In this document: in pieces, positions 1 to 19,679 of the stretch | Position numbering within the stretch: the stretch's first letter is position 1 | Layout of the letters: each line of letters starts with the position of its first letter | Assembly: GCF_018688235.1 (NCBI RefSeq) | Contig: NZ_CP061313.1 | Location: forward strand, 1,570,538-1,602,537 | DNA length: 32,000 nucleotides | Direction: 5' to 3' | Source of the DNA: Polynucleobacter sp. AP-Nino-20-G2 | GTDB lineage: Bacteria; Pseudomonadota; Gammaproteobacteria; Burkholderiales; Burkholderiaceae | Notes under the pieces: model-generated | Told to the model about the DNA's origin: nothing | Databases searched by the model: none | What the model saw: only the letters and a program-made list of their open reading frames with translations | Position numbers and translations under genes: made by a program

Positions 1-315
1 TAAGATATCTTGAGCTTCTTTGGGTGCATTTACCCAATATCGGGCAGGATCCTTGTCCCAAGCCTTGATATCCACAGTTACTACAAATAATAGAGATCCA
101 TCAGTAACTTGAGCCTGATCATGAGCAGCTTCTCGTAATTTTGCCCTTAAAGCCTTGTCTGTAACATTCACCAAACGCCAGTGTTGGATATTGAATGAGG
201 ATGGCGCCTGCATAGCAAGGTCAAGCAACTGCTCTGTCTCTTGCTTAGTAAATTCATGGCTTGGGTCAAAATACTTAACGGCCCTACGTTCGTGGATTGC
301 ATCAAATGTATTCAT
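1..315 (-). CDS. nitroreductase family protein, N-terminal part (gene runs off the left edge)
   Basis: Absent from the ORF track because it has no stop in the window. My minus-strand translation from the ATG at 315..313 is MNTFDAIHERRAVKYFDPSHEFTKQETEQLLDLAMQAPSSFNIQHWRLVNVTDKALRAKLREAAHDQAQVTDGSLLFVV... and stays open to position 1. A GAGGA Shine-Dalgarno lies a few nt upstream. The RRAVKYF and PSSFNIQHW motifs are typical of the nitroreductase fold. Confidence 0.6.
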   Translation of the reverse strand, partial: MNTFDAIHERRAVKYFDPSHEFTKQETEQLLDLAMQAPSSFNIQHWRLVNVTDKALRAKLREAAHDQAQVTDGSLLFVVTVDIKAWDKDPARYWVNAPKEAQDIL

Positions 316-360
316 TAACTTCCTCAGTGAGATTCAAGCTCTGATAATACGGCAATATTC

Positions 361-403
361 AAAAGACAAAACCCTCACCGTTGCTGATGAGGGTTTGCTT
401 TTC
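361..403 (-). terminator. rho-independent terminator following the tRNA
   Basis: Hairpin AAACCCTCA-N10-TGAGGGTTT (369..396). On the minus strand it starts just after the tRNA CCA end and is followed by TTTTGTCTTTT. Confidence 0.55.
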
Positions 404-703
404 TGGTGGGCCCACCAGGACTTGAACCTGGGACCAAAGGATTCCGGTTTGTGTAGCTTTCACTACTCCCTGGACTATGCCTTCATCATATTCAAACTTA
501 ACATCTGAACTTAGATGGGTGCCGTCTAGTCTCTACACCTTCAACAGCACTTTCACGCTGAAGCTTGGCTCGGCGTTAGCTTGTGCAGCTTTTGGCTGCA
601 TTTAGCTTTCTCCGAATTTGACACCATCCCTTATGCAGTTTCCACGCATAAGGCACAACTTTCGCTATAAGTCCTCTGCTCTAACCAACTGAGCTATGGG
701 CCC
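404..703 (-). tRNA. tRNA-Ile-like gene (ileX/tRNA-Ile2-type body, genomic anticodon TAT) split by a group I intron; exons 703..667 and 443..404
   Basis: The minus strand reads GGGCCCATAGCTCAGTTGGTTAGAGCAGAGGACTTAT (703->667) and AATCCTTTGGTCCCAGGTTCAAGTCCTGGTGGGCCCACCA (443->404). Joined, they fold as a 77-nt cloverleaf: acceptor GGGCCCA/TGGGCCC, D stem GCTC/GAGC, anticodon stem GAGGA/TCCTT, 5-nt variable loop, T stem CCAGG/CCTGG, T loop TTCAAGT, encoded CCA. The anticodon loop is CT-TAT-AA. Confidence 0.8.
444..666 (-). ncRNA. group I self-splicing intron (IC3-like, Azoarcus tRNA-Ile intron type) in the anticodon loop
   Basis: This is 223 nt between the two exons with no ORF. The minus strand contains GTGCCTTATGCGTGGAAACTGCATAAGGGATGGTGTCAAATTCGG...GCCGAGCCAAGCTTCAGCG...GAAGGTGTAGAGACTAGACGGCACCCATCTAAG. 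From memory this is almost colinear with the Azoarcus pre-tRNA-Ile ribozyme core GUGCCUUGCGCCGGGAAACCACGCAAGGGAUGGUGUCAAAUUCGG...GCCGAGCCAAGCUUCGG...GAAGGUGUAGAGACUAGACGGCACCCACCUAAG, with compensatory changes in P2. The intron ends in G directly before the 3' exon, and a GTG guide can pair with the exon TAT. Confidence 0.8.
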
Positions 704-715
704 TAAAACTTTACG

Positions 716-820
716 TTTACTACACACCTTGCTGCTGGTGTTTTTTACTACAAAACCACATAAAAACCACATTTACTACACACCATGAAAAATGCCCTGG
801 TGTGTAAGCGGTGTGTAAGC
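716..820. repeat. cluster of five short motif copies (TTTACTACACACC x3 in one orientation, GGTGTGTAAGC x2 inverted) just upstream of the tRNA
   Basis: TTTACTACACACC occurs at 716..728 and 772..784, and TTTACTACAAAACC at 744..757. Tandem GGTGTGTAAGC occurs at 799..809 and 810..820, which is close to the reverse complement of the first motif. Related copies lie at 962..973, 3062..3086, about 3243..3262 and 18421..18442. Confidence 0.6.
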
Positions 821-897
821 AATTTTGACCACCTAATTCACCACTAAGCTCTTGAATCTATTGAGGTCTTTGTTACAAGACCCCTAGGGCTTCTTTC

Positions 898-1139
898 TTA
901 TGAGAGCAGAAGCCCATAATAGAGCCATATAAACAGGGGCTCTGCGGGTGGTCAGTGTCGATGTGTAAGTAAATGTGTGAGCAAATTCACGCATTTACTA
1001 GAAGAGCTCTCGGACTCTTTGGTCTTCAAAACCACAGGAATTTTGGAACAACCATCTAGCACCTCGTTGCTCCAAAGTACTTTCTAGAGGAATAAGCGTT
1101 ACTTTGAGTAACGCTTATGTAGCGAGGGGCAACTACCGA
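898..1139. repeat. ~240-bp repeat unit, copy 1 (starts with the junction motif TTATGAGAGCAGA, ends ...GCGAGGGGCAACTACCGA)
   Basis: Hand alignment with 3170..3419. The shared TTATGAGAGCAGA start is followed by a diverged middle. The last ~125 nt are well conserved (CTCTTTGGTCTTCAAAACCA...GTTGCTCC...ATAAGCGTTACTTTGAGTAACGCTTAT..GCGAGGGGCA). Confidence 0.6.
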
Positions 1140-1161
1140 CCCACAGCAGCCACACATTTAT

Positions 1162-1186
1162 AAAAAACCCGCCGAAGCGGGCTTTA
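1162..1186 (-). terminator. rho-independent terminator of the autotransporter gene
   Basis: The minus strand reads AAGCCCGC-TTCG-GCGGGTTTTTT about 25 nt after the stop codon. Confidence 0.6.
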
Positions 1187-1208
1187 TTAAAGACTATTAA
1201 TCAAGTGC

Positions 1209-2627
1209 TTACAGACCAACTGTGTACGTAGCCATCACAGTAGTTGTAGAAACAGCCTGATACGGCTCTTGACGATAAATGCCGGTCACACCTAAGCGTT
1301 GATTCTTTGCCACATCGTAAGTAGCCCCAACCATTGCTGTTGGGCGAGTCTTAACGGGGTTAGCGTTAAAGTTCACCGGGCTTAACCCAGCAACACCAGT
1401 TGCAGATACAGCACCATTAGCGGTATTGGTATCAGTCTCTACCCCAGCACTGGCAAAAAGATTGGTTTGAGGGATACCTCTATAGCTAGCCCCTACGCCT
1501 GCTAAAGCAGTAGTGGCATTGGTATTGAGTGCTGAGTAAGTCAACGGCGCTGTGACTGTTGCAGAAGTACCTTCTGTATAGCCACCCATATTGTTTTGGG
1601 TATAGCGAACACCGGCATATGGAGAAACAATCACGCTCTGTGCAACCCCAAATCCATACTTAACTACCGCTTGAGCGCCTTGGCTATTTAACTGGGATGA
1701 GCCTGAACCAGCTTCGGATGTCCCAACCACTTGGCGGTTAATCGTAGTGTTCTTTTGACCATAGGCCAAGGAGACCTTTACCTCAGCGCCAGCACCATCT
1801 AAACGTTCATTCCAAGCACCAAACAGGCCAATGAGTGGCGTGTTATTTCCGAGGTTTACGGTAGAGCCTGCATTATTGACTGAGAGGTTCTGGTCTACAT
1901 ACGCGCCTACACGATAATTAATGTGTGGGCGATAAGCAGCAATGAGAAGACCGCTGGTGTTATTCAAGCCGTTAGCCGCTGAGACTGCCGTATTTCGACC
2001 ACCAGCAGATACGCAAACATTATTCTTATCAAATAAGGCGCAATCGTAGGCAAAGCTGTTAGCTAGAACTGAGTTCTGCAGTGTGTAGATATTTTGCAAA
2101 GATGATGCAGTGTTGACAAGGGAAGTTTGGGTGTCCGCAGCAGAGGGACCCTCAACAAGGTAAGTCACCGATAAATTCTCCCAGCTTGGTTCTCCACCAC
2201 CGGGGATGGTGCCAATATAAAAGAAAATGTTTGGGTTTGCCGTAGTGGTAGTAAGACGAATACTAAAGTTTGTAGAAGTATTTAAAGCGCTTCCAGTCAA
2301 TGAGGTGGTTGCACTATCCCCCAACTTAATAGACATTGTGTTTGAGAGGCTATAACTAAAATTGTAAGCACCTGAGACGGCGTAGGTTCCAGCTGAACCC
2401 GTAATGGACTGACTAAGCGAACCAGTCCCCGTATTCTGATAAGCATAAAATACACCACTCGAAGCATAGGCTGACAGTAAATTAGTTATTGTCCAGCCAG
2501 ATGTGCTATCCCCAGTAAAGGTTGGATTAACTAGCAAATTAGCTTGAGAATAGGCATTCGTCACTAATAAGCTGCCAGAAATTAAAGTCAGAAAGAAAGC
2601 AATTTTGATTTTTTTTAAGAGGCACAT
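1209..2627 (-). CDS. autotransporter outer-membrane protein (signal peptide, ~170-aa passenger, beta-barrel translocator)
   Basis: The N-terminus MCLLKKIKIAFFLTLISGSLLVTNAYSQ is a signal peptide. The segment TLQNSVLANSFAYDCALFDKNNVCVSAGGR is typical of an autotransporter linker. The C-terminal ~270 aa has the alternating beta-strand pattern of an autotransporter barrel (YAGVRYTQ.., GIYRQEPYQ..TTVMATYTVGL). Confidence 0.6.
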   Translation of the reverse strand: MCLLKKIKIAFFLTLISGSLLVTNAYSQANLLVNPTFTGDSTSGWTITNLLSAYASSGVFYAYQNTGTGSLSQSITGSAGTYAVSGAYNFSYSLSNTMSIKLGDSATTSLTGSALNTSTNFSIRLTTTTANPNIFFYIGTIPGGGEPSWENLSVTYLVEGPSAADTQTSLVNTASSLQNIYTLQNSVLANSFAYDCALFDKNNVCVSAGGRNTAVSAANGLNNTSGLLIAAYRPHINYRVGAYVDQNLSVNNAGSTVNLGNNTPLIGLFGAWNERLDGAGAEVKVSLAYGQKNTTINRQVVGTSEAGSGSSQLNSQGAQAVVKYGFGVAQSVIVSPYAGVRYTQNNMGGYTEGTSATVTAPLTYSALNTNATTALAGVGASYRGIPQTNLFASAGVETDTNTANGAVSATGVAGLSPVNFNANPVKTRPTAMVGATYDVAKNQRLGVTGIYRQEPYQAVSTTTVMATYTVGL

Positions 2628-3089
2628 GGCTACGTGAGGATAAGTGTTGGCTGTAGAGCTAATATTTTAAAAAACCGATTATGCCTCCAATCTATGACTA
2701 ACCTACTAGATTGCGCTTAATAATTTGTTGAGACAAGAGTCTGCGACAATAAAACCCCATTCACCAACCCCGCCCCAATACCCCTTACTTAGACTTACAA
2801 AATAAAAATCGGGTTATGTTCGCTTTGTTTGGAGCTTCTGTCCAAATCTTTCCAAGTAAAACTAAAGATTTAGACAAGATTGAAGTTACTTGCGTTGAAA
2901 TGGAAGCGCTTACACAGTGCAAGTCACCCTCCTAACAATTTACGACATACGTAATGTCGCTTACTGGCCGAAAGCAGCCCTTGAGCACTTGCAAACCAAG
3001 GGCAACAAATAGTTCATTGCTCCAAGCTAGAGCCATATATCTATTGGGGTCTAGCGGTGATATTTGCTACACACCGACTACACATTAAA

Positions 3090-3120
3090 GAAAAACGACT
3101 TAGGAATTTCTCCCTAAGTC
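3090..3120 (-). terminator. terminator-like hairpin directly downstream of the orphan tRNA 3' fragment
   Basis: GACTTAGG-N8-CCTAAGTC (3097..3120), followed on the minus strand by GTTTTT. Confidence 0.45.
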
Positions 3121-3131
3121 GCTAATTTCAT

Positions 3132-3171
3132 TGGTAGGCCCACCAGGACTTGAACCTGGGACCAAAGGATT
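3132..3171 (-). repeat. orphan duplicate of the tRNA 3' exon (att-type direct repeat)
   Basis: TGGTAGGCCCACCAGGACTTGAACCTGGGACCAAAGGATT matches 404..443 at 39 of 40 positions. Identity stops exactly at the exon/intron boundary of the intact gene. Confidence 0.85.
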
Positions 3172-3419
3172 ATGAGAGCAGATACCCAAAGAAAACCATT
3201 AGGATTTCAAGAGGTTACGTTGTCTGGTTATCGGTGTGTGAGTATTTGTGTGACTAGATTAACTAGATCATAAGGAGTAATGCCTCACTCTTTGGTTTTC
3301 AAAACCAATGAATATTTGGAGCAACCATTTCACACTTCGTTGCTCCACAGTGCCTTTTGAGAGATTTATAAGCGTTACTTAAAGTAACGCTTATATAGCG
3401 AGGGGCAGCTAACGATTCG
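3170..3419. repeat. ~240-bp repeat unit, copy 2
   Basis: The unit starts with TTATGAGAGCAGA. Positions 3170..3220 also match 18552..18602 (about 45/51 by hand). It contains three palindromes: TTGGTTTTCAAAACCAA (3292..3308), GGAGCAAC-N13-GTTGCTCC (3318..3346) and TATAAGCGTTACT-TAA-AGTAACGCTTATA (3367..3395). Confidence 0.6.
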
Positions 3420-4075
3420 TAGCTGCCGCCCAAAGAAAAACCACCCGTAATGGTTGCCCCTGATGTTGTTTGTGTTTCGTTTTTATTATTTAAAGTATAG
3501 ATACCGCTTGCGGTAAACCCAGCAATTGAATCGGTTTTAAATGACAATGTATTTGCCGTGCGAGCTGTAAAACCAATGTAGCTAGTTCCAGCGCTTGCAC
3601 TCGCAATTCCCTGCGCACTTGCGTATATGACGTTACCAGTCAGGTTGTTAAAGTTACCTGGATCCGTTGCTAACCCTGCGTTAAAAATTGGCGTGTATTG
3701 CAAACCAAGTGCCGCTTGTCCAATACCATTCTTTTTTAGACCAACGAATGACTGTCGATTAAATAAGCCATTATTTGCATTGCCACCTAAGTTTGCATCT
3801 TGAGGATAAATTTGAAATTCTGTTGTGAAAAATGCGGATGATCCACCACCCAAGTCTTCAATTCCTTTTAGACCAATACGACTAGAGCTCTCTGCATTCT
3901 GACCAAATTGACTTACTGTTGTCTTTGTTTCTGCGCCTGTTGTGGGGCTGACTACTCTTGAGTTGCCGCCTACATAACCCGCATCAATAATTCCATACAC
4001 CGTTACACTTGATTGTGCTTGTACGCCGCTTGCACAAACAGCTGCTAAGCCCGCCGCTGTAATAATCTTTTTCAT
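3299..4075 (-). pseudogene. Gram-negative general porin (Burkholderiales OmpC-like), 3'-truncated by the repeat unit
   Basis: The N-terminus MKKIITAAGLAAVCASGVQAQSSVTVYGIIDAGYVG... is a classic porin start. Porin-like sequence stops near aa ~215, where the reading frame runs into repeat unit 2 (about 3419). The normal C-terminal third is missing. Confidence 0.6.
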
Positions 4076-4282
4076 TTCCTATTTCCTTTACCTTTTAACT
4101 TTCAATTAATTTTGGTGACCCGAATGCAAAACCTGCAATCGAAGCCAGTCTAGGTAAAGAACTGCATGATGTCTAATGCATTTTAATGACACTTAATATA
4201 ATTAAATGTAATACATTGCTATAGTGAAGTAGATAAATGAATTCACAATTAATTTCTAAACTTTTGGACGAAAATTTGTAGC

Positions 4283-4320
4283 AAAAAAAATGCCAACAAA
4301 GGCTCAAGCTCTGTTGGCAT
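4283..4320 (-). terminator. rho-independent terminator closing the catabolic operon
   Basis: The minus strand reads ATGCCAACA-N13-TGTTGGCAT followed by TTTTTTTT, 29 nt after the Bug gene stop. Confidence 0.6.
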
Positions 4321-4348
4321 TCAGAATGAAAATGTGGGTAGCTAGATC

Positions 4349-5344
4349 TTAATCAGCCTTAATTTGATTTACTGAAATAACCTTTCCCCAGCGTTCAATT
4401 TCTTTATTTAGATAAACCCCCAGCTCTTCTGGCGATGATCCTATAGGTTCAGCACCAATACTTTCAAACTTATCCTTAATGGCAAGAGTATTCATACTGG
4501 CTACCAAGGCTACATTCAACTTCTTAATAATAGGCTTTGGAGTATTCGCTGGCACAAAAACTGCAAACCAAGGCGTGACATCATATCCTGGTAACCCAGA
4601 CTCAGCAATGGTTGGTATGCCTGGCAAGGCCTTAGAGCGCTTGATTGTCGTTAAACCGATTGGCCTTAGCTTTCCAGAAAGAATATGAGGCTTTGCAGAA
4701 GTGATGCTGTCAAACATGTAATTCACTTGACCGCCAAGTAAGTCAGTCACTGCTGGGCCGCTACCCTTATAAGGAATATGTTGCATATCTATTTTCGCTA
4801 ACGACGTAAATACCTCTCCAGCCAAATGAATAGAAGTGCCGTTACCTGCTGACGCATAGGTAATCCTTCCAGGCTGCGCCTTTGCATTTGCTATCACATC
4901 CGCAACTGTTTTTACGTTAGGCTGGGTAGCATTAGTAACCAATACATTAGGCACAATAGCAATGAGACTAACGGGCGCAAAATCCTTTATCGGGTCATAG
5001 CTTAATTTTGGATATAAAAACTTATTGGTAGCCATGCCAATTGAAGTAATCATCATTGTGTAACCATCAGCTTCAGAACGAGCTACTAATTCCGCTCCAA
5101 TATTCCCGCCTGCACCGGGCTTATTTTCGACAAAGATTGTCTGACCCAAAGATTTGGAGGAGCTATCTGCAAGTGCGCGTGCAATCACATCCATTGCCCC
5201 GCCGGGCGGAAAAGGAACAATCCATTTAATTGGCTTAGTGGGCCATTCCTGTGCATTAGCCATACTGAAGTACAGGAATATTGCAGCAATTCCAATGCCC
5301 TTTCCTATCCAGGATGGCTTCCGTTTATTTCCCATCATGCCCAC
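4349..5344 (-). CDS. Bug-family (TctC-like) tripartite tricarboxylate transporter substrate-binding protein
   Basis: A signal peptide is followed by QEWPTKPIKWIVPFPPGGAMDVIAR, the hallmark N-terminus of the Bug family. At 331 aa it has the typical size. Confidence 0.8.
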   Translation of the reverse strand: MGMMGNKRKPSWIGKGIGIAAIFLYFSMANAQEWPTKPIKWIVPFPPGGAMDVIARALADSSSKSLGQTIFVENKPGAGGNIGAELVARSEADGYTMMITSIGMATNKFLYPKLSYDPIKDFAPVSLIAIVPNVLVTNATQPNVKTVADVIANAKAQPGRITYASAGNGTSIHLAGEVFTSLAKIDMQHIPYKGSGPAVTDLLGGQVNYMFDSITSAKPHILSGKLRPIGLTTIKRSKALPGIPTIAESGLPGYDVTPWFAVFVPANTPKPIIKKLNVALVASMNTLAIKDKFESIGAEPIGSSPEELGVYLNKEIERWGKVISVNQIKAD

Positions 5345-6635
5345 TTTTCCCTGCTAATGAGATTGCAATACATGCAATTGCGCCTGGAATTGCGAATGCA
5401 TAGAAGTTAAATTCCAATGGCAAACCCAAGCTTAACAAAGTACCGCCTAGCACTGGACCTAAAATAGCGCCCACACGACCAATGCCAGAGGCCCAACCAA
5501 TACCAGTGGAACGAATTTTTAATGGGTAGTATTGCGCAACATAGGCATAGAGCAAGATTTGAGAGCCAATTGTGGTTGCGCCTGCAATAGCTACCAATAG
5601 ATTTAAAACAATGAATGGACTCTTAACACCTAAGAGACTAATTGAAGCGGCAGCGCAAATAAAGAAAATGGTAAGTACCTTGCGTGGATGGAACTTATCG
5701 GCAAGCCAACCACCTCCAACCGCTCCAAAGATAGCGCCAATGTTTAGCACCATCAAGAACATTAGGCTTGAACCCATCTCATACCCAGCTTTGTTCATTA
5801 GCTTTGGAAGCCAAGATCCCAACGCATAAACCATTAATAGGCACATAAAGAATGAAGTCCAGAACATTAAAGTACTTAATACGCGACCATCTTTAAAGAG
5901 CGAAACCAAAGGTACAGAGCTAGAGGCTTTACCTAATGGATAGATATATTCATTAGAAAGCAATGTGCCGCGCTCTGGGGCGATTTTTTTTAATATTTTT
6001 CCAGCATCAGAGTTCCGATTTGATTTAATCAAAAATCCAGGTGACTCAGGCAGATAGTAAAGAATGATTGGTAGCAGCAGCAGTGGAATAATGGCAACGA
6101 AAAAAACTGAGGGCCAGCCATAGGTCGGAATTAAATAGATTCCTACGCCAGCCGATAACATACCGCCAACTGAGTAACCGCTAAACATAATCGTTACCAG
6201 CAGGCTACGAATTTTTTTAGGTGAATATTCAGTCATCAAAGCAACCACGTTAGGCATTACGCCACCAATGCCTAATCCAGCAATAAATCGACAGATACCA
6301 AACTGCGTAAGGTTTTCTGCAAAACCATTAATAAAGGTAAAGAAGCTAAACAATGTAACGCACATTGCAATAGTCTTTTTTCTCCCTATCTTGTCTGATA
6401 ACGGCCCAAAGAACATAGCTCCAAACATCATGCCAAATAATGCATAACTACCCAAAGTCCCTGCCTGCATGGGTGATAACTGCCATTCGGCCATTAATTT
6501 AGGCAAAACAACTCCATAGATGACGAGATCGTAACCATCAAAAATGATGATTAGACCGCACCAAAATAAAAGACCCCAGTGAAATTTATTAAACCTCGCT
6601 TCGTCTATTAACTTATGAACATCAATTTGACTCAT
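5325..6635 (-). CDS. MFS transporter, aromatic acid:H+ symporter family (BenK/PcaK-like)
   Basis: 436 aa with a 12-TM-like profile. The FDGYDLVIYG and GPLSDKIGRKK motifs are typical of AAHS-family MFS transporters. It sits between pcaD and the Bug gene. Confidence 0.75.
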   Translation of the reverse strand: MSQIDVHKLIDEARFNKFHWGLLFWCGLIIIFDGYDLVIYGVVLPKLMAEWQLSPMQAGTLGSYALFGMMFGAMFFGPLSDKIGRKKTIAMCVTLFSFFTFINGFAENLTQFGICRFIAGLGIGGVMPNVVALMTEYSPKKIRSLLVTIMFSGYSVGGMLSAGVGIYLIPTYGWPSVFFVAIIPLLLLPIILYYLPESPGFLIKSNRNSDAGKILKKIAPERGTLLSNEYIYPLGKASSSVPLVSLFKDGRVLSTLMFWTSFFMCLLMVYALGSWLPKLMNKAGYEMGSSLMFLMVLNIGAIFGAVGGGWLADKFHPRKVLTIFFICAAASISLLGVKSPFIVLNLLVAIAGATTIGSQILLYAYVAQYYPLKIRSTGIGWASGIGRVGAILGPVLGGTLLSLGLPLEFNFYAFAIPGAIACIAISLAGKSGHDGK

Positions 6636-6637
6636 GC

Positions 6638-7441
6638 TTATGTCTCCAATTTGTGTTTGATTTGATTTGCAAAAAATTGCTTGATTACTTGATTGAATTC
6701 AGTTTCTGCTTCAATGTTTGAAATGTGCGAAGCAGGCACCTCTTGTAGTTGAGACCCTTTAATTTGGGACTGCATATACTGAGCATCACTAATAGTGGTA
6801 ACAGGATCTTTATCCCCGCTGATAATTAATGCAGGAATATTGATTTCTGAAATCCCCCCCTTAAGATCCTCAGTAGCCAATGCCTCGCAACAACTTGCAT
6901 AACCTTCAGGGTTCATATTTTTCAAGTTAATCAGTAATTCGTTAACTGCTTTAGGGCTTGAACCATAAAACTCTGGTGTAAACCATCTCGAAGGAGCGGA
7001 TTCTGCGATAGTATTGAGACCCTCTTTTCTAGCTAAAGCCGCCCGCTCATTCCATGCCTGCTCATTACCTATTTTTGGCGCAGTATTTGCAATCACTAAC
7101 GCCTCAATTCTTTCGGGCGCATTGACCGCTAGCCATTGACCAATAAGCCCGCCCATCGAAATTCCACAGAAGAAAGCCTTATCAATACTGAGGTAATCAA
7201 GAAGACCTAAAACATCATTTGCTAGCTGTGCAATGGTGTACGGACCCTTTGGAGAATGAGTTAATCCATGACCTCTAGTGTCGTATCTGATTAAGTAGAA
7301 ATCTCTTCTTAATACTTCAAGCTGACCATCCCACATAGAATGATCTGTTCCTAAAGAGTTAGAGAAAATAATTGCTGGTTTGTGAGGATCGCCATCTGTC
7401 AAATAGAAGATGTCAATTCCGTTAATGTGCGCAATACTCAT
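6638..7441 (-). CDS. pcaD: 3-oxoadipate enol-lactonase
   Basis: Alpha/beta hydrolase of 267 aa with GISMGG nucleophile elbow and the YDTRGHG motif. It lies in the beta-ketoadipate gene context. Confidence 0.8.
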   Translation of the reverse strand: MSIAHINGIDIFYLTDGDPHKPAIIFSNSLGTDHSMWDGQLEVLRRDFYLIRYDTRGHGLTHSPKGPYTIAQLANDVLGLLDYLSIDKAFFCGISMGGLIGQWLAVNAPERIEALVIANTAPKIGNEQAWNERAALARKEGLNTIAESAPSRWFTPEFYGSSPKAVNELLINLKNMNPEGYASCCEALATEDLKGGISEINIPALIISGDKDPVTTISDAQYMQSQIKGSQLQEVPASHISNIEAETEFNQVIKQFFANQIKHKLET

Positions 7442-7449
7442 TACTACTC

Positions 7450-8658
7450 CTAAACTCGTTCAATAATCATGGCTATGCCCTGCCCAACACCAATACACAT
7501 AGTGCAAAGAGCGTATCTACCTTTAGTGCGAATCAGTTGATACATAGCTGCAGTTACTAATCGCGCACCAGATGCCCCTAGTGGATGCCCAAGAGAAATA
7601 GCGCCCCCATTTGGATTGACGTGCGCCGCGTTGTCAGGAAGACCAAGATCACGAGTAACTGCTAAAGCCTGCGATGCAAATGCCTCATTTAGCTCAACCA
7701 CATCCATCTGACTAAGCTTTAAACCTGCTTTTTCCAAAACCTTCTTCACTGCAGGCGAAGGACCAAATCCCATGATTCTTGGAGCAACGCCAGCCGCAGC
7801 CACAGCCACAACACGCGCCTTTGGAGTCAGGGAATGCTGCTTTACACCAAGCTCTGAGGCAAGAAGCAAGGCGCAAGCGCCATCATTTACGCCTGAAGCA
7901 TTGCCGGCAGTAACTGTGCCACCTTGTTTAACAATGCTTTTTAGAGAAGCTAAAGTTTCTAGGGTGGTGAGACGCGGATGCTCATCCTTAGAAAAAACAA
8001 CAGGATCGCCCTTTTTCTGCGGAATATTTACCGGAATAATTTCATCGTCAAAGATGCCTGCAGCCTGCGCCTTTGCAGTACGCTGCTGACTAGTAAACGC
8101 AAATAGATCCTGATCAGCCCTGGAAATCCTAAAGTCTTCGGCAACGTTTTCTGCTGTTTCTGGCATGGAGTCAACGCCATACTGAGCCTTCATTAAGGGA
8201 TTAATGAAGCGCCAACCAATAGTTGTATCTTCAATTTTTGCCGATCTTGAATACGCAGAGTCGGCTTTACCCATTACAAAAGGTGCCCGAGACATGCTCT
8301 CTACACCCCCCGCAATCATTAGATGGTTGCCGCCACCTTTAATTGCATTTGCAGCTATACCAATGGCATCAAGACTAGAGCCACAGAGTCTATTGATGGT
8401 GGATCCAGGCACTTCCACTGGTAGACGAGCCAACAAGCTGGCCATCCTAGCAACGTTACGATTATCTTCACCCGCCTGATTGGCGCAACCAAAAATAACG
8501 TCATCTAACATTGACCAATCAACAATATTACGCATCATGAGAGCTTGAATTGGTAATGCAGCCAAATCATCCGCCCTTAAAGTAGATAGTGACCCACCGT
8601 ACCTACCAAAAGGAGTTCTAATGGCATCACAAATATATGCATTTGAATTATTTTTCAT
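7450..8658 (-). CDS. pcaF: 3-oxoadipyl-CoA thiolase
   Basis: Thiolase of 402 aa. It has the INRLCGSS active-site Cys, GNASGVNDGA, and C-terminal CIGVGQG motifs. It is adjacent to pcaIJ. Confidence 0.85.
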   Translation of the reverse strand: MKNNSNAYICDAIRTPFGRYGGSLSTLRADDLAALPIQALMMRNIVDWSMLDDVIFGCANQAGEDNRNVARMASLLARLPVEVPGSTINRLCGSSLDAIGIAANAIKGGGNHLMIAGGVESMSRAPFVMGKADSAYSRSAKIEDTTIGWRFINPLMKAQYGVDSMPETAENVAEDFRISRADQDLFAFTSQQRTAKAQAAGIFDDEIIPVNIPQKKGDPVVFSKDEHPRLTTLETLASLKSIVKQGGTVTAGNASGVNDGACALLLASELGVKQHSLTPKARVVAVAAAGVAPRIMGFGPSPAVKKVLEKAGLKLSQMDVVELNEAFASQALAVTRDLGLPDNAAHVNPNGGAISLGHPLGASGARLVTAAMYQLIRTKGRYALCTMCIGVGQGIAMIIERV

Positions 8659-9305
8659 GATTGAGCTATAGATAAAGGTGCGTCAGTTAGTTTTTGCAGC
8701 TCGCCCAAGGTGAGCCCAGGAACCATTTCACTCACAACCAAACCGTTTGGTGTGACATCGATAACAGCAAGATCTGTATAAATGCGATTTACGCAACCCA
8801 TACCGGTAAGTGGGTATGTGCATTTTTCAACAATCTTTGCCTCACCATTCTTGGTGACATGCTCCATCGTTACAAATACATTTCTTGCGCCAATTGCTAA
8901 ATCCATTGCTCCACCTACAGCGGGAATCGCATCTGGCGAACCAGTGTGCCAATTTGCTAGATCACCATTTTGAGCAACCTGGAAAGCGCCCAATACACAG
9001 ATATCAATATGTCCACCGCGCATCATCGTGAATGAATCGCCATGATGGAAATAGGAGCCGCCCTTTAATAGGGTGATAAATTCCTTCCCCGCATTGATCA
9101 AATCAGGATCTTCGTCTCCCTTAGCTGGAGCTGGACCCATGCCAAGAACCCCATTCTCGCTTTGCAAAAATATCTCTTTATCAACATCAAGGTAATTAGC
9201 GATTTTTGTAGGCAACCCAATACCTAAATTTACGTAAGAGCCCTCCGGAATATCTTGAGCCACTCTTTGAACAATTTGCTCTCTAGTTAAACGTTGGTAT
9301 GCCAT
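8655..9305 (-). CDS. pcaJ: 3-oxoadipate CoA-transferase subunit B
   Basis: CoA-transferase family I beta subunit with SENG catalytic-Glu motif. It overlaps pcaF by 4 nt. Confidence 0.85.
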   Translation of the reverse strand: MAYQRLTREQIVQRVAQDIPEGSYVNLGIGLPTKIANYLDVDKEIFLQSENGVLGMGPAPAKGDEDPDLINAGKEFITLLKGGSYFHHGDSFTMMRGGHIDICVLGAFQVAQNGDLANWHTGSPDAIPAVGGAMDLAIGARNVFVTMEHVTKNGEAKIVEKCTYPLTGMGCVNRIYTDLAVIDVTPNGLVVSEMVPGLTLGELQKLTDAPLSIAQS

Positions 9306-9307
9306 TT

Positions 9308-9976
9308 TTATTTCCCCTTCACAGCAACAACGTGCTTTACAAAAATACCCGGTGTAACAACATGCTCGGGATCTAGATCTCCCAGAGGCACCACTTCATT
9401 TACCTGAGCGATGGTGCATTTAGCTGCGGTCGCCATAATGGGGCCAAAATTTCTAGCGCTCATTCGATAAGTAAGATTGCCCCAGCGATCACCCTTAAAT
9501 GCTTTAATGAGTGCAAAGTCGGCATAAATCGGATACTCAAGCACATAGCCTTTGCCATTAATAACTTTGCTTTCTTTGCCTTCAGCCAAGAGGGTGCCAA
9601 ATCCTGTTGGGGTATAGATAGCACCAAGACCAGCCCCTGCCGCCTGAATGCGAGCCGCTAAGTTACCTTGCGGGACTAATTCGAGTTCAATTTTTTTGGC
9701 GTAGTACAACTTATCAAACTCATAAGAGTCAGATTGCCTTGGAAAGGAGCAGATAATTTTTTTCACCTGGCCTGCTTTGAGCAAGGCGGCCAAACCGACA
9801 TCACCATTTCCAGCGTTGTTGTTTACTACTGTTAGCTCTTTGGCTCCATGCTCAATCAAAGCATCAATTAACTGCGCAGGCTGACCAGCCGTCCCAAAGC
9901 CACCAATCATGACGGTTGAGCCATCTTTGATTTGTTTTATAGCTTCATGTATTGAAGCCGATGTTTTATCAATCAT
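9308..9976 (-). CDS. pcaI: 3-oxoadipate CoA-transferase subunit A
   Basis: CoA-transferase family I alpha subunit (GGFGTAGQP...NNNAGNG), 222 aa. Confidence 0.85.
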   Translation of the reverse strand: MIDKTSASIHEAIKQIKDGSTVMIGGFGTAGQPAQLIDALIEHGAKELTVVNNNAGNGDVGLAALLKAGQVKKIICSFPRQSDSYEFDKLYYAKKIELELVPQGNLAARIQAAGAGLGAIYTPTGFGTLLAEGKESKVINGKGYVLEYPIYADFALIKAFKGDRWGNLTYRMSARNFGPIMATAAKCTIAQVNEVVPLGDLDPEHVVTPGIFVKHVVAVKGK

Positions 9977-11167
9977 TCTTTTCTTTACTCTTTAATTTCA
10001 ATAAATCTTTATCAAAAACAACATATGCAATAGATCCAATCACAATTCCCCAGAATGCTGATCCCAGACCTAAAAAAGTCATGCCAGATGCAGTTGCTAA
10101 AAATGTGATTGCGGCAGCCTCACGATGATCGGGTTCTTCTAAAGTGCTCATGAGGCTAGTGACGATTGCGCCAAGTAAAGCTAAGCCAGCCAAAAGCGCG
10201 ATGAGCTCTTTTGGAAGACTGGTAAAAATGAGAACGATTGAACCTGCTAAGGAACCGCCAATTAAAAAGAAAACGCCGCTGAAAATGCCTGCAACATATC
10301 GCTTGTTTGGATCTTCGTTAGCTTCTTTGCCTGTACATAGGGTTGCCGTAATTGCTGCAGTCGTAGTGGTAATGCCACCAAAGAATGCGGTTACCAGGGA
10401 CATGAAACTTGTAAAAGTAATAATGGGCTTAGCGGGCACGTGATAGTTCGATAACTTGAGGATTGCCATTCCCGGCAAGTATTGGCCGGTCAAACTTACT
10501 AGAACCAACGGTATTGCAAAGCTGAATGTTGATTCCCAAGTCCACACAGGAGTGATGAATGTAGGATGGGCCAAAGCTAGCCTGAAATTATCTGGATTAA
10601 CATCACCAATGAGATATGCCAGCCCGATTCCTGAAAATAAAACAACTAAGATCGCGAATTTTGGTATCAACCTTTTGAATATCAGATAAATTCCAATCAT
10701 CGATAAAGCCAAGGCAGGCATGGTTGATACAGATTTAAATATATTGATACCAAACTGAAATAGAATGCCCGCCATCATTCCGGCCGCTATTCCCTTGGGT
10801 ATATGCTTTATTAGCTTGTCAAAGGTACCCGTAATGCCAATTAATAGAATGATCATTGCGGCAGTGATATAAGAAGAAATTGCCTCATTGACCGACATAT
10901 GCGGAAATAAGGCGATTAAGAGCGCAGCGCCAGGAGCGGACCAAGCAGTAATGATCGGCATCTTGTATTTCCAACTGAGATAAATCCCGGAAATGCCACC
11001 ACCAAACGATACCGCCCATACCCAAGAAGATAGAACTTCATTAGATACCTGAGCTAGAGATGCGGCCTGAAAAAATATCAGCATCGGCCCAGCATAGGAA
11101 ATCAATACAACTAGAAATCCAGCCGTAATTGAAGAGGGTGAAATATCTTTGAAAAAGGCGCGCTTCA

Positions 11168-11168
<1 letters not shown>
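9969..11168 (-). CDS. benE: benzoate membrane transport protein (BenE family)
   Basis: A 399-aa polytopic membrane protein directly downstream of benD, with a TAATG stop/start overlap. Its N-terminus and size are typical of BenE. Confidence 0.7.
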
Positions 11169-13480
<2,312 letters not shown>

Positions 13481-13484
<4 letters not shown>

Positions 13485-14851
13485 GCGTTCACCTGCTCTT
13501 GCTCAACTGCTTTTTTCATTGTTTCAAGCCAATAGCGATGCTGAACTGTGTACAGGCCCTCATCTTCAGTTTTCAAGCCACTTAATACGGGTTTCAAGCC
13601 GATCTCTTTAGCCGCATCGTCAGCGCCTTCAATCCAATGCTCTGAACCACGACACATATCGTTCCACTCGATCGTCTTTGCAGCAAAGCCTTCCTGGCAA
13701 GCTCTAAACTCTTCCAAGTCATCTGGAGTAGCCATACCGCTCACGTTAAAGAAGTCCTCGTATTGACGAATTCTTCTAGAGCGCGCTTCTGCTGACTCGC
13801 CTTTTGGAGCAATACAGTAGATAGTGACTTCAGTTTTATCAACAGCTAATGGGCGCAGTAAGCGGATCTGTGAACCAAACTGATCCATCAAATACACGTT
13901 TGGATATAAGCAAAGATTTCTGGAGCGCTCAATCATCCAATCAGCAATTGGTTTGCCAAACTTATCGGAAAATTCCTGGTGCCTCGGGAAATTTGGCCGG
14001 TCCTGTGGATTAGCCCACTTTGTCCAGAGGAGCATATGGCCGTGATCAAATGAATAGAAGCCACCACCCTGCTTACCCCACTTGCCAGCATCCATTGCTT
14101 TGATGTTGTCTTCGCGAATTGCTTCTTGCTCTTTACGATGGTTGGTAGTTGCAGCATAGTTCCAATGAACAGCAGATACGTGATAACCATCAGCACCGTT
14201 TTCTGCCTGAAGCTTCCAATTACCGTTAAAGGTATAAGTTGAGGCGCCCTTCAATACTTCGAGTCCATCAGCAGATTGATCCACAATCATGTCAATGATC
14301 TTGGCGGCTTCACCCAAAAAGTCCTTTAAAGGGGCAACATCATTATTTAAGCTACCAAATAAGAAGCCACGATAGCTTTCAAACTTAGGCACCTTCTTGA
14401 GATCGTGTGAGCCTTCCTTGTTAAAGCACTCTGGGTAGCCGGCCTCCTCTGGATCTTTAACCTTCAAGAGCTTTCCGCTGTTATTAAATGTCCAGCCGTG
14501 GAATGGGCAAGTGAAAGTAGCCTTGTTGCCGCGCTTATGACGGCACAACTGAGCGCCACGATGGCTACAAGCATTCATCATGGCGTTCAGTTCACCCTGA
14601 CGATTACGAGAAATGAAGATTGGCTGACTACCAATATAGGTAGAGTAGTAATCATTGATGTTTGGGATTTGACTTTCGTGCGCCAAATAAATCCAATTAC
14701 CCTCAAAGATGTGCTTCATCTCTAATTCAAACAAATCTTTATCGGTAAAAGCACTACGGTGAAGACGATAGTCGCCCTTCTCCTTATCCTCAATTAAGAA
14801 TTCATCAAGGCTTTTGAGTTTTGGACTGTTATCTACATGAATTGGGATCAT
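13481..14851 (-). CDS. benA: benzoate 1,2-dioxygenase large (alpha) subunit
   Basis: Rieske motif CSHRGAQLC...CPFHGW and a mononuclear-iron catalytic domain, 456 aa. Confidence 0.9.
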
Positions 14852-14894
14852 TTTTTATCCTTTATGAATGGGATGCTGGCATCCCATATTCAAA

Positions 14895-15815: not shown

Positions 15816-15889
15816 TTTGTATCCTATTAATTTGTATGTGTGTAATTAAGTTCGCTACCAACTGCATATCTGTGAAATTTTTCAAATAA

Positions 15890-16180
15890 TTAACTGTCGT
15901 CCCCCCTTACGGAAGATGGATGTCTGCACAAAGGCATTACTTCAATTTGCATGTATGGGAAGAGTGGAAGTGTCGAAATAGCTGTATGCAATTCCTCTAC
16001 GCTCGCAACATCAAATACGCTAATGTTTGCGTACTGGCCAGCGATGCGCCAGAGATGACGCCACTTGCCAGAGCTTTGCAATCCTTGCGCAATTTCTTTT
16101 TCTTTCTTTTTCAATGCCGCTGCCTCAGCCTCTGGCATTGAAGTGGGTAAATTCACATTCATTCTTACGTGGAATAACAT
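15890..16180 (-). CDS. catC: muconolactone delta-isomerase
   Basis: 96 aa: MLFHVRMNVNLP...GKWRHLWRIAG...LPLFPYMQIEVMPLCRHPSS, the canonical CatC pattern. Confidence 0.9.
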   Translation of the reverse strand: MLFHVRMNVNLPTSMPEAEAAALKKKEKEIAQGLQSSGKWRHLWRIAGQYANISVFDVASVEELHTAISTLPLFPYMQIEVMPLCRHPSSVRGDDS

Positions 16181-16191
16181 GTTGTCTCCTT

Positions 16192-18420: not shown

Positions 18421-18442
18421 TGTGTAGTATTTGACTACACAC
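18421..18442. repeat. inverted pair of the GTGTGTAGT-type motif
   Basis: TGTGTAGTATTTGACTACACAC: two copies of the motif family also seen at 716..820 and 3062..3086, here facing each other. Confidence 0.5.
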
Positions 18443-18456
18443 TTTCTAGCATGCCC

Positions 18457-18477
18457 AGCGTTACTTAAAGTAACGCT
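18457..18477. repeat. palindrome AGCGTTACT-TAA-AGTAACGCT (copy 3 of 4)
   Basis: It has the same core as 1092..1118, 3367..3395 and 25425..25441. Confidence 0.6.
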
Positions 18478-18551
18478 CAAATGACCAAACCCCACCTTTA
18501 GTCTCAAAAGCTAGCTTTTTGTAATGTTTAGGTCCTGTTTAGGTTCTCTGG

Positions 18552-18602: not shown

Positions 18603-18613
18603 CTCCTATATAA

Positions 18614-19135: not shown

Positions 19136-19145
19136 TTAAGCCTCC

Positions 19146-19670: not shown

Positions 19671-19679
19671 ATAGCCCCC

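Follow-up and report, generated by a model that had tools for sequence, protein, structure and literature searches.

The locus poses a question of position: why does the 3' half of a tRNA-Ile gene lie, cut off at the anticodon loop, upstream of a complete copy of the gene? In the window, by which we mean the whole stretch of 32,000 nt of Polynucleobacter DNA that was analysed, positions 3132..3171 match the 3' exon of the resident tRNA gene (404..443) at 39 of 40 nucleotides, and none of 100 dinucleotide-preserving shuffles reproduced this match. The plus strand of the orphan reads TGGTAGGCCC...AAGGATT. On the minus strand, which is the tRNA strand, it reads ...GGGTATCTGCTCTCAT|AATCCTTTGG...CCTACCA, with TCTGCTCTCAT directly preceding the 3' half. 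As the initial annotation had described, the sole mismatch (A at 3136, G at 408; T versus C on the minus strand) falls at tRNA position 72, the likeness ends precisely at 443/444, which is the 3' splice site of the resident group I intron, and the orphan is followed by a terminator of its own. ARAGORN called no tRNA in the whole window, missing the resident tRNA because of its intron, and a search for additional tRNA pieces within the window yielded two 3' halves only.

Arms and cores in the window

The orphan proved to be the terminus of a far longer repeat than had been described. The segment 3170..3447 aligns with 898..1171 (283 nt, 70% identity), and 3170..3220 aligns with 18552..18602 (51 nt, 88% identity). 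The window contains two full P-arms and one short one, with cores at 3170, 898 and 18552, and all three copies share the end TCTGCTCTCATAA. The conserved P-arm is about 220 nt long (3177..3394) and halts at the 7-nt anticodon loop CTCATAA. We compared these sequences with a set of about 200 related genomic and metagenomic loci (given as L numbers). The features are:

404..703, minus strand: resident gene (tRNA*), with 5' exon 703..667 (anticodon TAT), intron 666..444 and 3' exon 443..404.
704..897, minus strand: 194-nt spacer or type 2 P'-arm, beginning GAAAGAAGCCC; upstream region of the resident gene.
898..904, minus strand: core B, CTCATAA, read directly from the sequence.
905..1171, minus strand: type B P-arm, with a palindrome (1092..1118) and repeats CTCACACA..CTTACACATCG.
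2953..3131, minus strand: type 1 P'-arm, a terminator-like hairpin (13 pairs and a T run, 3123..3094, from a terminator scan) and then GTGTAG..GGTGTGTAGCAAA repeats (3088..3060).
3132..3169, minus strand: orphan tRNA-Ile 3' half, tRNA positions 39-76 including CCA, with T72 (the 39/40 match also counts two A's of the core).
3170..3176, minus strand: core A, CTCATAA, the tRNA-Ile(CAU) anticodon loop and putative crossover (overlap) region, at which all junction classes break.
3177..3447, minus strand: type A P-arm, 80-85% identical over about 220 nt to arms in L061, L030, L049, L092, L094, L105 and L116.
18438..18551, minus strand: alternative right arm (CCAGAG arm), with CCAGAGAACC (about 70 nt), a palindrome (18457..18482) and a GTGTGTAGTC hairpin.
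18552..18607, minus strand: core C (18552..18558) with a short P-arm (49 nt), which ends a neighbouring integrative element.

Besides a palindrome (3368..3394), P-arm A contains two hairpins, direct repeats TCACACA..TCACACACC (3230..3250) and a core-proximal TTGAAATCCTAATGG. P-arm B is 82-89% identical to arms in L138, L104, L018, L092, L043, L064 and L071. Core B is centred in a perfect 8-bp inverted repeat (GGGCTTCT at 915..908, AGAAGCCC at 894..887), which, judged by its sequence, is the geometry of a tyrosine-recombinase core site. Left arms have paired direct repeats of CTTACACA, about 11 nt apart and about 55 nt from the core, and right arms carry the inverted form GTGTGTAG; the motif was defined after the data had been viewed, and its enrichment is descriptive only. 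With these paired and inverted repeats and the inverted repeat around core B, the arms appear to resemble attP arms. We considered arms A and B as miniature derivatives of the element at 18552..26613 and rejected this, only 51-56 nt being common to them.

The right-hand partners of the cores also recur. The type 1 P'-arm is 79-93% identical to the sequence downstream of intact genes or orphans in L064, L109, L092, L138, L140, L010, L098 and L137. The 194-nt spacer is rich in GGTGTGTAGTAAA and CTTACACACC repeats and is found with 81-92% identity in 13 places, preceded by either the tRNA 5' half and CTCATAA or a P-arm and CTCATAA. The end formed by core C occurs in metagenome contigs L001-L008 and L147 as well. 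The CCAGAG arm, also seen in L104 and L145, takes the place held in L009 by the 3' half and terminator; it counts against the array explanation developed below.

The two long arm copies share one orientation and have a constant spacing of 2272-2276 nt, as they would if a unit of about 2.27 kb had been doubled by slippage or unequal crossing-over, with the orphan as a by-product and no integrase involved. Such a local segmental duplication is highly improbable. The copies are only 70% identical to each other whereas each is 80-89% identical to arms of other genomes, and they represent two arm types with separate distributions. Moreover, their right-hand partners are unlike (3' half versus spacer) and the intervening DNA is not duplicated.

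Junctions at the anticodon loop in related loci

Among the roughly 200 loci, all four combinations of a tRNA 5' half or P-arm, CTCATAA, and a 3' half or other arm were found, all with the same 7-nt break; such a pattern is characteristic of a tyrosine integrase that recombines within the anticodon loop of an intron-less tRNA-Ile(CAU) gene. The junctions seen were 5' half-core-3' half; P-arm A, B or L-core-3' half; 5' half-core-spacer; P-arm-core-spacer; and P-arm-core-CCAGAG arm. Every arm type ends ...CTCAT|AA and the alternative right arms all begin right after CTCATAA. Arms of at least three types, unrelated or diverged, which come from Polynucleobacter and Limnohabitans/Comamonadaceae, meet CTCAT|AA at one point. 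Because all junctions break at these 7 nt, and 7 bp is too short for homologous recombination, that process is not their cause.

The intron-less tRNA-Ile(CAU) gene that the initial annotation had supposed to exist elsewhere is present and intact in relatives, downstream of rpoD (GGGCCyATAGC..GAGGACTCATAATCCTTTGG..CCA), and the rpoD-linked gene was found in 16 of the 18 loci that have the canonical flank. In L071 and L108 an intact gene is followed 4.5-4.9 kb further downstream by an orphan, L061 packs three orphans into 7 kb, and L061, L092 and L171 contain arrays like that of the window. An integrase-bearing element that carries the repeat was found too. L191 contains a complete 4.3-kb element, bounded by repeats of the core and 3' half, with the order 3' half-442-aa integrase-...-188-aa recombinase-P-arm-core-3' half. 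The intact genes, the orphans at CTCAT|AA and the L191 element uphold the original reading of the orphan as a footprint of integration into an intron-less tRNA-Ile(CAU) gene with crossover in the anticodon loop.

Dispersed as the repeat is, its copies fall at the borders of cassettes, which answers the concern that it might be a genome-wide sequence unrelated to island borders. A 35-nt block of the orphan 3' half is present in at least 120 genomic stretches, and at least 240 stretches carry the 3'-half block at a cassette border; the block of identity spans C32 to CCA. In freshwater metagenomes, the junction occurs in at least 120 stretches and contig ends often fall there. Methylophilaceae genomes (L040, L076) carry an identical 3' half. 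An orphan half-tRNA as such is a routine, common kind of scar that marks a cassette boundary. The right flank of the orphan (3131..2953) is that found after intact genes at the heads of arrays (L071, L119, L060, L132), and therefore element DNA lies on both sides of the orphan.

Among the metagenome loci, no excised circles or contigs with terminal overlaps were found. L171, which has two junctions, was rejected as a circle; a 7-kb cassette lies between two different joints. Viral contigs scanned for attP contained no attP-like joints, and the scan gave two phage contigs only, with complete, promoter-bearing tRNA-Ile(CAU) genes.

The arm and 3' half could also be imagined as a functional RNA gene, either a tRNA-like 3' domain or half of a split tRNA, with an orphan 5' half as its partner by way of GGGCTTCT/AGAAGCCC pairing. 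This would fit the three conserved hairpins in the arm, the terminator, and the 8-nt complementarity of the P-arm B leader to the sequence that trails orphan 5' halves. It is nonetheless so improbable that we give it almost no weight, for the 5' acceptor strand is missing, the three hairpins predicted by RNAalifold show sequence conservation with hardly any two-sided compensatory changes, and the orphan has a G1-U72-type change. The partner of the arm also varies (3' half, spacer, CCAGAG arm or intron), and every genome with an orphan 5' half also has a complete gene some 200 nt further downstream.

The cassette array and its neighbouring element

At the orphan, a benzoate/catechol cassette meets a 2.27-kb autotransporter cassette. 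Four further features bear on what the orphan joins:

3169..898, minus strand: 2.27-kb cassette, with no integrase.
1209..2627, minus strand: 472-aa protein with an autotransporter beta-domain (Pfam PF03797, 4.7e-13).
3441..4075, minus strand: porin gene, cut at 3441 and matching Pfam Porin_4 over the N-terminal part only (the L018 porin has 410 aa).
22389..22961, minus strand: 190-aa Xer-like tyrosine recombinase (Pfam PF00589, 2.9e-26; PHROG integrase, 2e-41).

Neither of the two cassettes that meet at the orphan has a recombinase gene. No homologue of the 472-aa protein was found in the other related loci, and exact-sequence look-ups of the autotransporter and TctC proteins in the collection gave no match. 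On the minus strand, the window is ordered as four units. The first is an integrase-type element that ends with the short P-arm and core. The second consists of the CCAGAG arm, a palindrome, the benzoate/catechol cassette cut in the porin gene, P-arm A and the core. The third runs 3' half-P'1-autotransporter-P-arm B-core, and the fourth 194-nt arm-tRNA* with intron-terminator-nitroreductase.

We consider it very probable that the orphan marks an att junction inside a tandem array of cassettes built by tyrosine integrase recombination in the CTCATAA of tRNA-Ile(CAU). The attP of an element would consist of the P-arm of about 220 nt, the core CTCATAA and a right arm, the last being the tRNA 3' half with terminator and GTGTAG repeats, or another arm. 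Integration would couple the chromosomal 5' half to the element's right arm and leave P-arm-core-3' half at the far end. In the proposed order of events, newcomers at the head would displace older cassettes outward, and internal joints would therefore read P-arm(newer)-core-3' half-P'-arm(older). The window shows exactly the order P-arm-core-3' half-P'-arm at 3447..2953 (minus strand). If the array is still mobile, the circle joint of an excised 2.27-kb cassette would read P-arm B-CTCATAA-TCCTTTGG..CCTACCA-ATGAAATTAGCG and the matching empty joint P-arm A-CTCATAA-GAAAGAAGCCC.

The 190-aa Xer-like protein is the only recombinase in the window and lies inside the neighbouring element, which probably reaches from 18552 to at least 26613. 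Gene order in this element is kept in L145-L149 and L152, and comparison with L150 places a boundary at 26614. The element encodes an AAA ATPase (phrog_1250) and an exonuclease, and no primase was recognised in it. A CCCACCA at 26547..26553 was considered as a tRNA end at the left border of the element and dropped, the empty site in L150 having no tRNA. Elsewhere, a divergent integrase of about 450 aa (PHROG integrase, 1e-28) lies 0.1-4.4 kb downstream of 3' halves in seven loci, with homologues in 13 loci overall; most cassettes have no accompanying integrase. The 32,000-nt window contains no such integrase, no array head (rpoD-tRNA) and no intact target tRNA gene. L152 is 98% identical to window 25841..32000, and its integrase of about 450 aa lies beyond the point that matches the window's right end; by this comparison, the counterpart here would sit about 6 kb past that end.

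Integration is not the only process to have left traces at the joint. The porin gene to the left of P-arm A is truncated, and therefore at least one illegitimate or homologous event also shaped it. Window 16635..3441 corresponds to L018 1..13195 at 99.8% identity, ending at 3441 in the porin gene, whereas window 1..3441 is only about 87% identical to L018, and part of the mosaic may therefore have arisen by homologous replacement instead of integration. One cassette is found with differing att neighbours in L018, L009 and L010/window: L018 reads DAO-P-arm B-core-3' half-terminator-nitroreductase with no 5' half, and in L009 P-arm A-core-3' half takes the place of the CCAGAG arm seen in the window and L010.

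One could propose from this that homologous recombination among conserved modules shuffles the cassettes, the att-like joints being old and no integrase acting today. The sharp drop in identity at 3441, the divergence of L017 and L018 exactly past the palindrome, the swap of the core-to-palindrome segment between L009 and L010/window, and the scarcity of integrases all agree with this, but shuffling is unable to make the 7-nt core breakpoints or the four-way set of junctions, and complete integrase-bearing elements exist. As a full account it is unlikely. Homologous shuffling fits best as an additional process, one that works on an array which integration had built. With the orphan as a key to the locus, the benzoate/catechol pathway, the porin, the autotransporter and the recombinase-bearing element would be successive modules of one tRNA-Ile(CAU) array, and nearly identical att modules are interspersed through the flexible genome in Polynucleobacter and other freshwater Burkholderiales.

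The resident gene and comparison with known systems

The resident intron (223 nt, 444..666) is a group I intron by its Rfam match (RF00028, 55.7 bits, over the gathering threshold), its fold, the pairing of the final U of the 5' exon with G in P1, and its terminal G. Its boundaries are ...CTTAT|AGCG...ACCGG|AATCC, with insertion after U36. Removal of 444..666 in silico gave a canonical 77-nt tRNA that was called tRNA-Ile(TAT) and, with C34 restored, tRNA-Met(CAT). The anticodon of the resident gene is TAT and not CAU, whereas the other intron-containing copies counted have CAT (13 of 13); JGI metagenomes gave no hits for the TAT form.

At least 14 related loci have a truncated tRNA 5' half followed by a spacer of about 160-195 nt and a complete tRNA gene. 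The spacer is of the window's type in 10 and of another type in six, and 12 of the complete genes have an intron and one is intron-less. Wherever the upstream gene was examined, the orphan 5' half lay directly downstream of rpoD. Probably, therefore, the resident gene is a replacement copy that came with the right arm of a target-splitting element; it would not be the original target and would ride with the 194-nt arm, joined at the core. The position of the orphan upstream of a complete gene, which had been put down to a second gene or to tandem accretion with rearrangement, is thereby explained: tandem accretion stands, but the puzzle goes away if integration first struck another gene than the resident intron-containing one.

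The initial annotation had also speculated that the intron protects the locus from further integration. Partly in keeping with this, the 7-nt core is interrupted by introns of two unrelated kinds, inserted at 33/34 and at 36/37 respectively. However, in five loci an arm is joined straight to CTCAT|intron, and any block is therefore not absolute. A tentative extension, which we hold possible but somewhat short of an even chance, is that some elements split tRNA-Ile(CAU), leave the 5' half by rpoD and bring an intron-split replacement gene 160-195 nt from the core, with the intron serving the element. If this is true, the intron would keep the replacement gene from being a second att site, preventing self-deletion or re-targeting, and the essential tRNA would thereby be tied to the element. 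On this reading, the resident gene of the window would belong among these copies and would have lost one further core position through its change of C34 to T. Should the link between integrase and intron be functional, it would provide a concrete selective reason for the persistence of some bacterial tRNA introns.

Islands and prophages reportedly occupy tRNA genes with crossover in the anticodon loop, as in the sublocation classes and the Islander database. The borders here are likewise marked by a direct repeat of the tRNA part that begins in the anticodon loop and runs to the 3' end, the overlap is a 7-nt loop flanked by the anticodon stem, and a tyrosine integrase adjoins the tRNA end, here in related elements. 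By contrast, most cassettes here are integrase-less, the arms (about 220 and about 170 nt) are conserved across cassettes with unrelated cargo, and some elements lack a 3' half, with the target split. In the accretion-mobilisation model of CIMEs, exemplified by ICESt1/CIME of Streptococcus thermophilus, integrase-less segments bounded by functional-looking att sites also share a target with integrase-bearing elements, beside which they lie in tandem; the two cases differ in phylum, target and integrase family. Group I introns of the Azoarcus type are said to occur in tRNA-Ile(CAU), and the resident gene similarly has a small intron, which is inserted between positions 36 and 37 and lacks a homing endonuclease gene. 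The intron core sequences GATGGTGTCAAATTCGG and GTAGAGACTAGACGGCACCCA presumably resemble those of the Azoarcus intron, but the gene here is on the arm of an integrative element beside an att core and has the anticodon TAT.

Closest in layout are tycheposons (Hackl et al., bioRxiv 10.1101/2020.12.28.424599) and the 'additive' flexible islands of Methylophilaceae (PMC10872708), where serial integration at one tRNA pushes older elements inward, leaving partial tRNAs between modules of nutrient or catabolic cargo; one target gene described there is a tRNA with a CAT anticodon (bioRxiv 10.1101/2020.12.28.424599; PMC10872708). The window shares with them a tandem array with partial tRNAs and its benzoate/catechol and autotransporter cargo, a likeness of layout and cargo. 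The probable integrase here is a divergent protein of about 450 aa paired with a 190-aa Xer-like recombinase, and an intron-containing replacement tRNA is not described in the accounts of tycheposons and flexible islands. Tandem accretion at a tRNA gene is known, and the interesting part of this locus is the replacement tRNA, in which an intron interrupts the att core.

The resident tRNA gene and the orphan 3' half

All tRNA-related features of the window lie on the minus strand. They include an intron-containing tRNA gene (the resident gene) and a lone tRNA-Ile 3' half (the orphan).

703..404, minus: resident tRNA gene, two exons and a group I intron
703..667, minus: 5' exon, GGGCCCATAGCTCAGTTGGTTAGAGCAGAGGACTTAT
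666..444, minus: group I intron, 223 nt (Rfam RF00028, 55.7 bits; gathering score 50)
443..404, minus: 3' exon, AATCCTTTGG...CCCACCA
3132..3171, minus: orphan 3' half
3123..3094, minus: hairpin of 13 pairs and a T run, after the orphan

ARAGORN called no tRNA across the window as it stands and, once the intron was removed, called a 77-nt tRNA-Ile(TAT) for the resident gene. The anticodon (669..671) is TAT rather than CAT, and the core sequence defined below reads CTTATAG there (5/7). Among the 14 intron-containing copies counted in the loci retrieved, the other 13 have CAT and only the window has TAT, and the TAT form with its intron start had 0 exact matches in JGI metagenomes. A redundant copy may have drifted to TAT, the gene may encode a true tRNA-Ile(UAU), or the base may be a sequencing error.

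The orphan matches the resident 3' exon at 39 of 40 positions, the sole mismatch being at tRNA position 72; 0 of 100 shuffles gave a match. It is directly preceded by ...GGGTATCTGCTCTCAT. The initial annotation had read the orphan as the att footprint of an intron-less tRNA-Ile(CAU), and every feature it described (the 39/40 repeat, the preceding sequence and the terminator-like hairpin) is present.

The sequence before the orphan belongs to a repeat that we call the P-arm. In a self-comparison of the window, 3170..3447 aligns with 898..1171 as a diverged repeat (283 nt, 70%), and the final 51 nt are found again at 18552..18602 (88%). All three copies share the end TCTGCTCTCATAA and stop at a core, CTCATAA, after which come three different partners: the tRNA 3' half (3169, core A), GAAAGAAGCCC... 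(897, core B), and CCAGAGAACC... (18551, core C).

Junctions at the anticodon loop in related loci

We scanned one genome per species for a 35-nt 3' half and obtained at least 120 stretches; those listed came from Polynucleobacter, Limnohabitans and other Comamonadaceae, Methylophilaceae, Oxalobacteraceae, and Gallionella.

Sequence upstream of the 3' half, among the matches listed
Azoarcus-type intron: 40
Intact intron-less gene, GGGCCyATAGC...GAGGACTCAT: 36
Second intron class: 12
Limnohabitans/Comamonadaceae arm: 11
P-arm type A: 10
P-arm type B: 10
Other: 9

CTCAT is kept in every orphan among the matches listed, so the orphans and the tRNA have C32 to CCA in common. Intact genes and chromosomal 5' halves lie downstream of rpoD, itself preceded by dnaG, which is the position of ileX in E. 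coli. This position and the acceptor stem (C4-G69, C5-G68) identify the target as tRNA-Ile(CAU). The intron-less gene that had been postulated outside the window has counterparts in relatives, where intact genes lie downstream of rpoD. In L071 and L108 a P-arm orphan lies 4.5-4.9 kb downstream of an intact gene, L061 has three orphans within 7 kb, and L092, L115, and L131 have two junctions apiece. This is the textbook layout of a tRNA island. A second scan, of JGI metagenomes for the P-arm end, core and 3' half, also gave at least 120 stretches; contigs frequently terminate at this junction, as expected of a repeat.

Complete intron-less tRNA-Ile(CAU) genes also occur on two viral contigs of IMG/VR (L143 3975..4055; L144 3150..3235), where they are identical over the searched 31-nt block, from the anticodon loop to most of the T arm. 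Each has its own promoter-like sequence; they are tRNA genes carried by phages, not attP sites. In at least nine loci (L010 5654..6890, L053, L055, L061, L062, L071, L074, L077, L092, L171) an insertion sequence with an rve-family transposase and the end sequence GGTACGTACCGGACAcATGcTTTACGTCCGG sits about 9-14 nt past the CCA of tRNA-Ile 3' halves, suggesting that it prefers the hairpin just downstream of the tRNA as a target.

Core B and the resident gene are separated by a 194-nt spacer (897..704) that is 81-92% conserved in 13 other places. In ten places (nine loci) it is preceded not by a P-arm but by a tRNA 5' half ending in CTCATAA, which in L023, L039, and L032 has the chromosomal flank TCCAAAGACTAAC beside rpoD; in L032 the 5' half, core, and spacer are duplicated in tandem. 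A complete tRNA gene follows the spacer, with an intron in most of these places. Orphan 5' halves number 16, spread over 14 loci, and in every case a complete tRNA gene lies about 160-195 nt further on; besides the window's spacer type the set includes four others, and it has introns of both classes. The chromosomal gene of these genomes has been broken within the anticodon loop, and a second, replacement gene (tRNA*) came along with the spacer. The resident gene of the window is a copy of this kind: there, as in L077, L142, and L034, the spacer and tRNA* have a P-arm before them. All four combinations of 5' half or P-arm with 3' half or spacer are found, with the breakpoint in the same 7 nt. 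Because 7 bp is too short for homologous recombination, that process is excluded for the core breakpoints; site-specific recombination with a 7-bp overlap directly explains the four-way set. Integration into tRNA-Ile(CAU), proposed earlier as the origin of the orphan, gains support from the fact that unrelated arms and the 3' half or spacer all break at CTCATAA.

An alignment of 24 P-arm sequences revealed, in order, the palindrome GAGCGTTACTTwAAGTAACGCTC, two hairpins, two direct repeats (C)TTACACA about 11 nt apart and roughly 55 nt from the core, and a type-specific stretch, which in type A contains TTGAAATCCTAGTGG. Right arms bear the (C)TTACACA repeat inverted: GTGTAGTCGGTGTGTAGCAAA lies at 3088..3060, the spacer has three GGTGTGTAGTAAA-like and two CTTACACACC copies of the motif, and GTGTGTAGTC lies past the palindrome at 18440. 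Core B is flanked by a perfect 8-bp inverted repeat, GGGCTTCT/AGAAGCCC (915..908, 894..887), centred on the middle base of CTCATAA, the geometry of a tyrosine-recombinase core site. Both kinds of arm look like att arms. We rejected the P-arm as an RNA gene because it is the sequence of its hairpins that is conserved, and two-sided compensatory changes are almost absent.

The palindrome (23-27 bp) marks module borders in the window (1092..1118, 3368..3394, 18457..18482, 25423..25448), in L017/L018 at about 18583, and in L145, L146, L147, and L023. Every full P-arm begins with it, and it also lies behind terminators and beside the exonuclease gene; its role could be that of a terminator or of a target for the 190-aa Xer-like recombinase described below (compare dif-like modules).

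Two group I introns interrupt tRNA-Ile(CAU), at 36/37 (Azoarcus-like) and at 33/34, so that two independent introns split the same loop, and both split the 7-nt core. The 33/34 intron, between U33 and C34, occupies 3529..3852 in L110 (GGACT/TAAAAGC...GGTAAG/CATAATCC), where its weak match to RF00028 (25.9 bits, E = 1e-4) stays under the gathering score, and also occurs in L024, L047, L073, L080, L097, L107, L127, L130, L135, and L139. The split also fits an element-borne tRNA* that must avoid offering a second core 200 nt from the real one. The earlier speculation that the intron protects the locus from integration is met by mixed evidence. Both introns divide the core, in keeping with that idea, but the 5' splice junction, CTCATAG, keeps 6/7 of it, and P-arms joined straight to CTCAT/intron in five loci (L010, L043, L115, L035, L037), together with the L032 tandem duplicate, indicate that recombination at the residual core does occur. 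The evidence for a block by the intron is suggestive.

Cassettes and recombinases

Upstream of the orphan lie a catabolic cassette and an integrative element.

3441..4075: Gram-negative porin gene, cut after about 211 codons at the end of the 99.8% identity to L018
4349..18352: complete benzoate/catechol/beta-ketoadipate gene set with a LysR regulator, BenE and MFS transporters, and a TctC-family solute-binding protein
18552..26613, perhaps beyond 32000: neighbouring integrative element with a 190-aa Xer-like tyrosine recombinase (PF00589)

Related loci came from Polynucleobacter genomes and freshwater metagenomes. The window at 16635..3441 is 99.8% identical to L018 (NCBI assembly contig JAANGT010000001.1). 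Identity falls to about 87% at 3441, within the porin gene, which encodes 410 aa in L018. A 258-aa porin ORF in the window was rejected as a real protein; its open frame continues into the P-arm and is a fusion artefact. In L018 five further genes continue the cluster, which ends in palindrome, P-arm B, CTCATAA, 3' half, terminator, and nitroreductase, with neither 5' half nor intron. At the other end L009 has tRNA-Gly(CCC), P-arm A, CTCATAA, 3' half, terminator, palindrome, and LysR, whereas L010 and the window have CCAGAGAACC... in place of the 3' half and terminator. Since both ends carry such modules, the cluster is a cassette bounded by att modules. The pathway, regulator, and transporters behave as one cassette, at 99.8% to L018 between flanks of about 87%. 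A segment of about 70 nt, CCAGAGAACCTAAAC..., replaces the 3' half and terminator after the core (window 18483..18551, L010 1607..1673, L104, L145, L147, L001, L002); it is conserved across genomes and has no tRNA features.

The porin truncation shows at least one additional event. This cut, the identity drop at 3441, and the divergence of L017/L018 immediately past the palindrome suggest a further contribution to the array from exchange between conserved modules, whether illegitimate or homologous.

Neither cassette meeting at the orphan encodes a recombinase. The neighbouring element encodes, in order, an exonuclease, DUF6641, the 190-aa recombinase, an AAA ATPase (phrog_1250), and two paralogous HTH-like proteins of ~174 aa. 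This order is kept in L145-L149 and L152; comparison with L150 places a border at 26614, and the other end (short P-arm, core, CCAGAG) is seen again in metagenome contigs. The 190-aa family has >5,700 homologues at E <= 1e-20, those listed being mostly from Burkholderiales and metagenomes, and in relatives the module adjoins defence-type cargo (RM system, Fic, helicases).

Relatives also contain a second, divergent integrase of ~450 aa (PHROG integrase, 1e-28; weak Pfam SAM-like matches only). Its gene lies 0.1-4.4 kb downstream of tRNA 3' halves, and homologues occur in 13 loci, often in the same element as the 190-aa protein. L191 holds a complete compact element, with 4.3 kb between direct repeats of core and 3' half. 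Its order is P-arm-core-3' half, a terminator, TTACACAC repeats, then genes for a 442-aa integrase, a 184-aa protein, a 188-aa recombinase and a 261-aa protein, and finally a P-arm with its repeats, CTCATAA/CCCTTTGG...CCA, and a terminator. L152 is 98% identical to window 25841..32000. At the equivalent of about 6 and 8 kb past the window's right end it carries the ~450-aa gene and, second, a tRNA 3' piece; by analogy, rather than by observation in this genome, both may lie there. The L152 piece (19467..19533) is shorter, starts in the T arm (CAGGTTCTCAAGTCCTGGTGGGCCCACCA), and is followed by a terminator and palindrome. It adjoins the ~450-aa gene; either the joint has decayed here or the crossover has a second sublocation.

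Order of the array and related systems

Read from high to low coordinates on the minus strand, the array has four units.

Unit 1: recombinase-bearing element and cargo, ending in a short P-arm and core (18558..18552)
Unit 2: CCAGAG arm, palindrome, benzoate/catechol cassette cut in the porin at 3441, P-arm A, core (3176..3170)
Unit 3, 2,272 nt: orphan 3' half, right arm P'1 and terminator, autotransporter gene, P-arm B, core (904..898)
Unit 4: spacer, tRNA* with intron, terminator, nitroreductase

On its right the orphan is flanked by 3131..2953, a sequence found as well after intact genes at array heads (L071, L119, L060, L132) and at other internal joints (L094, L064, L104, L138). The orphan therefore has element DNA on both sides, which bears out the tandem accretion raised by the initial annotation and would be expected of an internal joint in an array grown by repeated integration at its head. 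As to the class of mechanism we have fairly high confidence: the orphan marks an att joint within an array built by tandem accretion at tRNA-Ile(CAU).

We hold the specific history and the role of the intron with less confidence. An element carrying the spacer and tRNA* would have arrived first, splitting the target gene. Later arrivals with a 3' half would have recombined with the leftover 5' half and core, restoring an intron-less gene at the head and leaving P-arm, core, spacer, and tRNA* at the far end. Such an order would place the only complete tRNA gene of the window downstream of the orphan.

A limited literature search found no report of conserved att modules common to many integrase-less cassettes, or of an intron-split replacement tRNA on an element arm. 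Integrating elements leave partial tRNA genes in prokaryotic genomes generally (PMC9897764). In tycheposons newcomers push older elements into the island, with partial tRNAs between cargo modules (bioRxiv 10.1101/2020.12.28.424599). In Methylophilaceae an island at 'tRNA-Met(cat)' with a tyrosine recombinase has been reported (PMC10872708), and loci L040 and L076, which belong to this family, carry the identical tRNA 3' half. An accretion array with partial tRNAs is an already known kind of feature.
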